Assembly (NCBI RefSeq): GCF_003334385.1
Contig: NZ_QOWN01000104.1
Origin: Escherichia coli
GTDB lineage: Bacteria > Pseudomonadota > Gammaproteobacteria > Enterobacterales > Enterobacteriaceae
Length of the DNA stretch: 1,986 nucleotides
Direction: 5' to 3' (one strand)
The stretch's first letter is position 1; every line of letters starts with the position of its first letter. Shown in pieces: positions 1,754 through 1,845 of the stretch. Below the pieces are notes generated by a model. The model saw only the letters and a list, made by a program, of their open reading frames with translations. It did no database searches and was not told where the DNA came from. A program made the position numbers and the translations under genes.

Positions 1754-1845
1754 GTTCATCCGCCTCATGTGATGAACTGCGTTTGAGGAAACGTAAAGTT
1801 ACACTGTCCTGAAGCCCGTGGCGTCACTGCTGCGGGCTTTTTTTT
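1754..1845 (+). ncRNA. Hypothetical small RNA or orphan transcription unit (~90 nt) between lom and stf
   Basis: Bounded by the extended -10 element (1739-1747) and the intrinsic terminator (1812-1845). No ORF with an RBS lies inside. A 5' hairpin is predicted from the inverted repeat GTTCATC (1754-1760) / GATGAAC (1771-1777) with a 10-nt loop. This is a prediction from sequence only. Confidence 0.3.
1812..1845 (+). terminator. Rho-independent terminator downstream of lom, immediately upstream of the stf RBS
   Basis: AAGCCCG (1812-1818) pairs with CGGGCTT (1833-1839). The stem can extend inward with G-U wobbles (CCCGTGGCG 1815-1823 against TGCTGCGGG 1828-1836) around a TCAC loop (1824-1827). 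It is followed by a run of eight T (1838-1845). No T-run on the complementary side. Confidence 0.8.

Follow-up and report, generated by a model that had tools for sequence, protein, structure and literature searches.

The window, that is, the whole stretch of 1,986 bp that was analyzed, covers the J-lom-stf junction of a lambdoid prophage. Several complete Escherichia coli genomes were found to match it at 99.9% identity and to carry exactly the same annotations. Its layout is as follows.

up to 1040: 3' end of J, the tail-tip gene
1059-1078: strong terminator in the J-lom spacer
1108-1707, + strand: lom, encoding an outer-membrane beta-barrel protein of the Ail/Lom family (ORF; RefSeq annotation under the 99.9%-identical matches)
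1708-1858: lom-stf spacer, 151 bp
1859-1986, + strand: start of stf (side-tail-fiber), encoding a prophage tail fiber N-terminal domain protein (reading frame; RefSeq annotation)

The gene lom is among the few lambda genes that are expressed in lysogens (PMC7067206). The spacer between J and lom measures only 67 bp (1041-1107) and contains the strong terminator at 1059-1078; given this terminator, a lom promoter that is active in lysogens must sit either in the ~30 bp before the lom RBS or within J. The lom-stf spacer matched prophage P-EibA of ECOR-9 at 100% identity and phage PhiR5_1 at 98.8%. A small ORF was sought on its + strand, which was found to hold only ATG-TGA or MNCV followed by a stop codon, and this is not conserved in the common allele.

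Two unrelated alleles of the lom-stf spacer exist, one of 151 bp and one of 64 bp that consists of a terminator only. The short allele, exemplified by K-12 Rac and by Sp11, Sp14, and Sp15 of O157 Sakai, has a small palindrome of its own, TAACAC-A-GTGTTA, ahead of the terminator. Among 80 viral contigs retrieved via the stf N-terminus, ~85% carried the short and 12% the long allele. Of 5426 complete E. coli genomes, 1655 (~30%) have the long allele, usually as a single copy, and its carriers include O157:H7 Sakai (Sp9) and EPEC E2348/69 (PP6). Every homologous copy of the element studied here lies directly 3' of a lom-type CDS, and the long spacer is linked to several distinct lom alleles.

A scan with an 18-nt seed, covering one genome per species across bacteria, returned six matches, five of which were due to chance. 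The sixth is a 4.3-kb contig of a 'Collinsella sp.' MAG (JAIJJM010000250.1) that has the complete element (2678-2712) and is probably a misbinned prophage contig from E. coli or another member of the Enterobacteriaceae. A covariance model of the element (R1), run against 330 kb of prophage DNA, found lom-stf copies only and no paralogue. In one viral contig (L035, ~6345-7010) an IS200/IS605-type transposase element is located right after the terminator U-tract and before stf, and this insertion leaves lom and the element intact as a unit. Morons are transcription units that have been added between phage genes. By analogy, the presence or absence of the cassette at one site, with the 64-bp allele elsewhere, is moron-like behavior.

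The inverted repeat and its variants

Several parts can be distinguished within and around the long spacer.

1708-1720, + strand: poorly conserved segment after the lom stop codon (10 of 13 columns variable; 54-69% identity)
1721-1753, + strand: conserved upstream block with the candidate promoter, including an extended -10, TGTTATAAT, at 1739-1747
1750-1780, + strand: outer complementarity GCA/TGC (RNAalifold pairs 23-54, 24-53, and 25-52, unchanged in all 11 variants; DNA-parameter fold)
1754-1777, + strand: SL1, the inverted repeat (5' arm 1754-1760, to 1761 in other alleles; loop 1761-1770; 3' arm 1771-1777)
1778-1795, + strand: SL2 (UGCGUUU-GAGG-AAACGUA), tentative, from the predicted fold
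1796-1810, + strand: invariant stretch AAGUUACACUGUCCU (0 of 15 columns variable)
1811-1848, + strand: intrinsic terminator (terminator scan; folds)

The perfect 7-bp repeat GTTCATC-N10-GATGAAC that had been noticed in a preliminary description was confirmed both by reading the sequence and by a repeat finder: its arms (1754-1760 and 1771-1777) are 100% complementary and 10 nt apart. The same description proposed an eighth pair, G1753/T1778 (G-U), which can form in the window allele but is not conserved, position 1753 being T in lineages C-G. An alternative extension, invariant in all copies, pairs GCA at 1750-1752 with TGC at 1778-1780 across a one-base bulge, and in yet another register CGCAG (1749-1753) pairs with CTGCG (1777-1781), leaving G1754 bulged. 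For the outer GCA/UGC pairs to exist as RNA, the transcript would have to start further upstream, as in read-through from lom.

Repeats of this size are common in the 2-kb window, where six perfect 7-bp inverted repeats occur within 40 nt of each other. When the loop is restricted to 3-12 nt, the count is three, compared with 1.2 expected from dinucleotide shuffles, 15% of which reach three, and a shuffled 151-bp spacer has at least one such repeat in 6% of trials (P ~0.06). Taken alone, the repeat is barely above chance; it is an ordinary structural feature and no pointer to a new mechanism. Both heptamers are also found in PhiR5_1, a phage that has the window-type spacer, at 9661-9681 in the 3' end of the cI repressor gene, where they stand in everted order and form an 8-bp palindrome, AGATGAAC-N5-GTTCATCT. 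By a rough estimate, the chance of finding two such heptamers so close is a few percent; the geometry is unlike that of the spacer repeat, and the palindrome in cI is probably a coincidence.

Conservation was compared between three long-spacer lineages whose flanking genes are strongly divergent. Identity between lineages amounts to 64-69% in the last 250 nt of lom and to 73-86% in the first 120 nt of stf, as against 86-92% in the 126-bp block 1721-1846 and 93-97% in its part from 1778 to 1846. Conservation thus starts ~33 nt ahead of the predicted transcription start and stops at the U-tract. Judged from the sequences, this pattern is the one expected of a unit of promoter plus RNA; a conserved recombination patch that joins mosaic modules would agree with it as well. 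Within the block, conservation is lowest in the region of the repeat.

Variation in the repeat was assessed in 141 copies on viral contigs, which represent 11 distinct variants. A further search of the whole viral collection for variants of the rarer lineage gave 10 matches, every one of which was part of this set. The 5' arm is invariant in all 141 copies, and variable columns are distributed unevenly: none of the 8 columns of the 5' arm varies, as against 8 of the 16 that make up loop and 3' arm (hypergeometric P ~0.02, calculated by hand); the loop is the most variable part of the hairpin (5 of 8 positions). Three substitutions affect the 3' arm. A1772G, present in all alleles save the window type, and A1776G, present in lineage C, each turn a U-A pair into U-G, whereas G1771A, found in 4 of the 141 copies, causes an uncompensated C-A mismatch. 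Two of the three substitutions, namely, those from A to G opposite U, therefore keep the RNA pair and break the symmetry of the DNA. A perfect DNA palindrome is restricted to the window-type allele (7 of 141 copies), the remaining copies having one or two mismatches, and among the 1659 E. coli records with an identity of at least 95%, 27 (~1.6%) are of this type. The SL1 hairpin, in turn, was predicted in 10 of the 11 variants, corresponding to 139 copies, while variant E refolds; the RNA stem was calculated at -9.7 to -11.4 kcal/mol in the commonest alleles versus -6.4 kcal/mol in the window.

The preliminary description had suggested comparing homologous spacers for covariation as the mark of an RNA. 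This comparison gave none: no pair has changed on both sides, and compensatory double changes are absent from every helix among the 11 variants and 141 copies, a set of low diversity. Covariation shuffles were uninformative, since the variation is one-sided. It had also been stated that uncompensated changes in one arm would argue against both a structured RNA and a conserved operator. Related prophages do carry such a change, G1771A, in a minority of 4 out of 141 copies.

A candidate transcript between lom and stf

As had been noted at the outset, the repeat is located just downstream of a -10 element: the extended -10 ends at 1747, and the stem begins ~7 nt further on. TGTTATAAT is the sole match to TGNTATRAT in the window (0.15 expected), and the motif is kept as TGnTATAAT or TGnTATGAT in 140 of 141 copies. 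A simple -35/-10 scan of the window returned no promoter, and on reading the sequence no acceptable -35 was seen, the upstream hexamers at a spacing of 15-18 bp matching TTGACA at no more than 3 of 6 positions. The predicted +1 would be G1754, the first base of the repeat, 7 nt past the -10. Its equivalent in O157 Sakai is at ~1,798,825 of NC_002695.1 (+ strand; 1,798,962 of NC_002695.2), with the 3' end of the predicted RNA at ~1,798,915 (1,799,052), and in EPEC E2348/69 the corresponding segment is 1,470,683-1,470,773 of NC_011601.1. Against a primary start at this position speaks the invariant GCA/TGC complementarity upstream of it, which fits a longer transcript better.

The segments downstream of SL1 differ in how well their structure is preserved. 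Pair 57-64 of SL2 is broken in 5 of the 11 variants and is uncompensated in lineages C, D, E, and G (U1783C). Within 1786-1810, the SL2 loop has an SD-like AGGA and positions 1807-1810 have an anti-SD-like UCCU, neither of which varies; the two can pair, and in lineages C-G the resulting alternative fold takes the place of SL2. In the MFE folds of the commonest alleles (types A, B, and F), the stretch AAGUUACACUGUCCU was left unpaired; it is a candidate seed. When targets of this seed were sought inside the phage, in two prophage genomes, duplex energies did not exceed those of shuffled seeds, the self-antisense match aside.

The terminator consists of a G+C-rich stem of 12-13 bp at 1811-1840, in which 7 pairs are G-C, and of a U8 tract after it, and 99% of the cells of its stem are paired across the variants. 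It is the only terminator between lom and stf and also ends the lom transcription unit. With this stem and its T8, the element has the intrinsic terminator that belongs to the architecture of Hfq-type sRNAs. Folds of 95 nt had z values of -3.7 for the window and -4.6 for the common allele, and the SL1 hairpin persisted when the whole lom 3' UTR was folded.

These features suggest the following mechanism. A subset of lambdoid prophages has a conserved 126-bp cassette (1721-1846) inserted between lom and stf; this cassette would encode the RNA, and sigma-70 RNA polymerase would start at G1754 from the extended -10. The transcript would fold from its first nucleotide into a stem of 7-8 bp that leaves no single-stranded 5' tail, and in E. 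coli a 5'-terminal stem of this kind slows the 5'-end-dependent decay by RppH and RNase E. After SL1 would follow the invariant unpaired stretch and then the U-tailed intrinsic terminator. In 5' hairpins of the ompA type, a stem at +1 or 1-2 nt from it leaves RppH and RNase E no single-stranded 5' end. SL1 resembles these stabilizers in that it begins exactly at the predicted +1; it differs from them in that its effect is putative and its start is predicted. A transcription start, a discrete RNA, a stabilizing role, and any target are what we infer for this locus.

The record of expression is sparse. One chimera in RNase E CLASH data of O157 Sakai joins MicF to ATGGGGTGAACTGCGT, the 3' arm of SL1 in the Sakai allele (PMC5286369, supplement), and would imply that RNA from this spot exists in vivo. 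It is a single read that is not significant (p = 0.07), and it is the only positive trace of expression. The site of the chimera is in Sp9 (NC_002695.1, 1798836-1798853), and the 3' part of MicF is involved: UUUACCCCUAU of MicF can pair with AUGGGGUGAA over ~10 bp plus a bulge, for which the published table gives -14.7 kcal/mol. The Hfq RIL-seq tables of EPEC E2348/69 (PMC8550237) have no entry for the lom-stf spacer, although the strain has the element. PasB, encoded by the same PP6 prophage, is abundant in the EPEC RIL-seq data. In EPEC RNA-seq, read counts of lom and stf were very low, with a baseMean of ~2 for lom. In O157 Sakai, no EcOnc sRNA was called at the Sp9 element, which says little, since the EcOnc screen dropped sites less than 100 bp from a CDS and hence the entire spacer. 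The supplement of a ProQ CLIP study (PMC12426089) has no entry for these genes, and Rfam 15 gave no match for the whole window on both strands at E <= 1. A full-text search of the published literature returned no match to the sequence of the element, nor to an sRNA between lom and stf.

Comparison with known prophage RNAs

The nearest positional analogue is IpeX, an RNA of 167 nt that is reported to be processed from the nmpC porin transcript of prophage DLP12 in E. coli K-12 (PMC12197685). Like the element, IpeX is located directly 3' of a prophage moron for an outer-membrane protein and shares the 3' end of that gene; the element correspondingly lies in the lom 3' UTR and has its terminator in common with lom. 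Unlike IpeX, it is predicted to have an extended -10 of its own, and its RNA would measure ~92-95 nt. Identity with IpeX was rejected, as model R1 had no significant match in the nmpC 3' region and no similarity in sequence or structure was found.

PasB of EPEC and its EHEC equivalents EcOnc22-24, which are Hfq-dependent, are similar to the element in being short (83 nt), ended by a terminator, and placed among the tail genes of the same prophages. PasB has been validated experimentally, whereas the element is known as a prediction. In PP6 of E2348/69, PasB is in the I-J spacer, antisense to the tail operon and ~4.3 kb upstream of the element; it occupies 1462-1544 on the minus strand of the PP6 sequence (L007) and ~1215-1275 of a second sequence (L008), between tail assembly gene I and J. 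The same tail region of this prophage may thus hold two small RNA units, PasB and the element. The two are not identical: they differ in spacer and strand, and their alignment is confined to the terminator tail (CTGCGGG and a U run).

In the anti-sRNAs AgvB and AsxR, the 3' part is conserved and the 5' part varies (PMC4104026). The element is like them in this respect and shares with AgvB, AsxR, and HnrS of EHEC the location on prophages, a conserved intergenic position, and a terminator at the end. These three RNAs differ from it in their loci, which are the moron site downstream of PR' or the late region on the opposite strand, and in their length of 51-66 nt. As to identity, neither the AgvB nor the AsxR family (RF02702, RF02703) was matched in Rfam, nor were the Rfam families of Esr41, STnc100, and DicF in the window. 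HnrS/EcOnc10-12 belongs to another locus and has different features, namely, perfect complementarity to the mazF 3' end and pairing with the AGAAG RBS of hha. By analogy with the variable 5' ends of AgvB and AsxR, the SL1 loop and 3' arm could form a variable specificity domain on an invariant 3' body. The block 1721-1846 would then be an undescribed, independently transcribed prophage sRNA gene that would have escaped previous screens for its distance of less than 100 bp from coding genes and its poor expression in standard media. We consider this full proposal somewhat unlikely, if quite conceivable.

Alternative explanations and implications

In lambda-like prophages, the repeat most likely forms an RNA hairpin located at the 5' end, or close to it, of a short and so far unannotated transcript from between lom and stf. 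In the more specific and best-supported form of this reading, SL1 would be the 5'-terminal hairpin of an sRNA of ~92-95 nt with an extended -10 promoter of its own, the lom/stf terminator, and a shielded 5' end, a serious possibility that we hold tentatively and that falls somewhat short of being probable. The stem-loop envisaged in the preliminary description is supported in so far as folding predicts the hairpin for 139 of 141 copies and changes keep the pairing by wobble, while the G1771A mismatch does not agree with it. Because pairing is kept by wobble while the symmetry of the DNA decays, a role in RNA is favored over an operator. The repeat was also proposed to be the double-stranded operator of a dimeric repressor, centered at about +12, that would block a small promoter. 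The perfect dyad of the window allele would suit such a site, as would its center at +12 from the predicted start, the classic roadblock position, and a central spacer that is more variable than the arms. However, the perfect dyad is limited to a rare allele, the dominant alleles having one or two mismatches in seven, always G-T, which RNA tolerates and a DNA half-site does not. The half-site centers are 17 bp apart, or ~1.6 helical turns, and B-DNA geometry would place them on different faces of the helix. In the 50-kb genome of PhiR5_1, no second site of the same geometry was found and the half-sites occur 6 and 9 times compared with ~6 expected; the neighbors are lom and stf, with no regulator gene adjacent. 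To our knowledge, none of the boxes of CRP, LexA, Fur, CpxR, or LysR-type regulators fits the repeat, which serves as a lead only. With a dyad symmetry that is not conserved among homologues, no recurrence, and no adjacent regulator, the operator reading is disfavored, and we judge it very improbable.

It is plausible that the repeat is a 5' hairpin, belonging either to a prophage sRNA not described before or to the 3' UTR of lom. A variant of the latter, which we regard as unlikely, is that the hairpin is internal to a long lom 3' UTR, has no promoter of its own, and is perhaps processed to an sRNA in the way of IpeX. The element always lies 3' of a lom allele, shares the only terminator of lom, and has been kept by several different lom alleles, and the hairpin is retained in the fold of the whole 3' UTR; moreover, the outer GCA/UGC pairs never vary and, lying upstream of the putative +1, require a longer RNA. 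Expression of lom in lysogens (PMC7067206) and the precedent of IpeX (PMC12197685) point the same way. What a lom 3' UTR leaves unexplained is the presence of TGnTATRAT at the right distance, kept in 140 of 141 copies, and the onset of conservation ~33 nt before the stem, not at the stop codon. Furthermore, the very low RNA-seq signal of lom in EPEC (baseMean ~2) and the lack of similarity to the nmpC 3' region in sequence or structure count against it. Another view, also doubtful in our estimate, is that the repeat has no function and is a chance palindrome, the 126-bp block being a homology patch at the lom/stf mosaic joint or the result of recent spread. Mosaicism of lambdoid phages is known to involve conserved non-coding joints between modules that are themselves divergent, which agrees with this view, as do the abundance of 7-bp repeats in the window (six within 40 nt; three versus 1.2 expected with loops of 3-12 nt), the absence of covariation, the low conservation of the repeat region relative to the rest of the block, the uncompensated changes G1771A and U1783C (SL2), and the lack of expression evidence in two Hfq-centered datasets. 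A repeat devoid of function would, however, hardly be expected to show 0 of 8 variable columns in one arm versus 8 of 16 in the loop and other arm (P ~0.02), or pairing kept in 139 of 141 copies, partly via G-U, and the ordered succession of -10, hairpin, unpaired stretch, and terminator is unlikely in a mere recombination patch.

The interest of the finding is modest and resides in the surrounding cassette, whose sequence has the look of a prophage sRNA unit that is widespread and has so far gone undescribed. Should the transcript not be real, the repeat would amount to no more than a palindrome that arose by chance within a conserved joint of the mosaic. If it is real, an unannotated regulatory RNA would be added to the accessory genome of nearly one third of sequenced E. 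coli, with reference EHEC and EPEC strains among its carriers and a neighbor, lom, that is expressed in lysogens, and the hairpin would set the stability of this RNA and possibly its allele-specific recognition.
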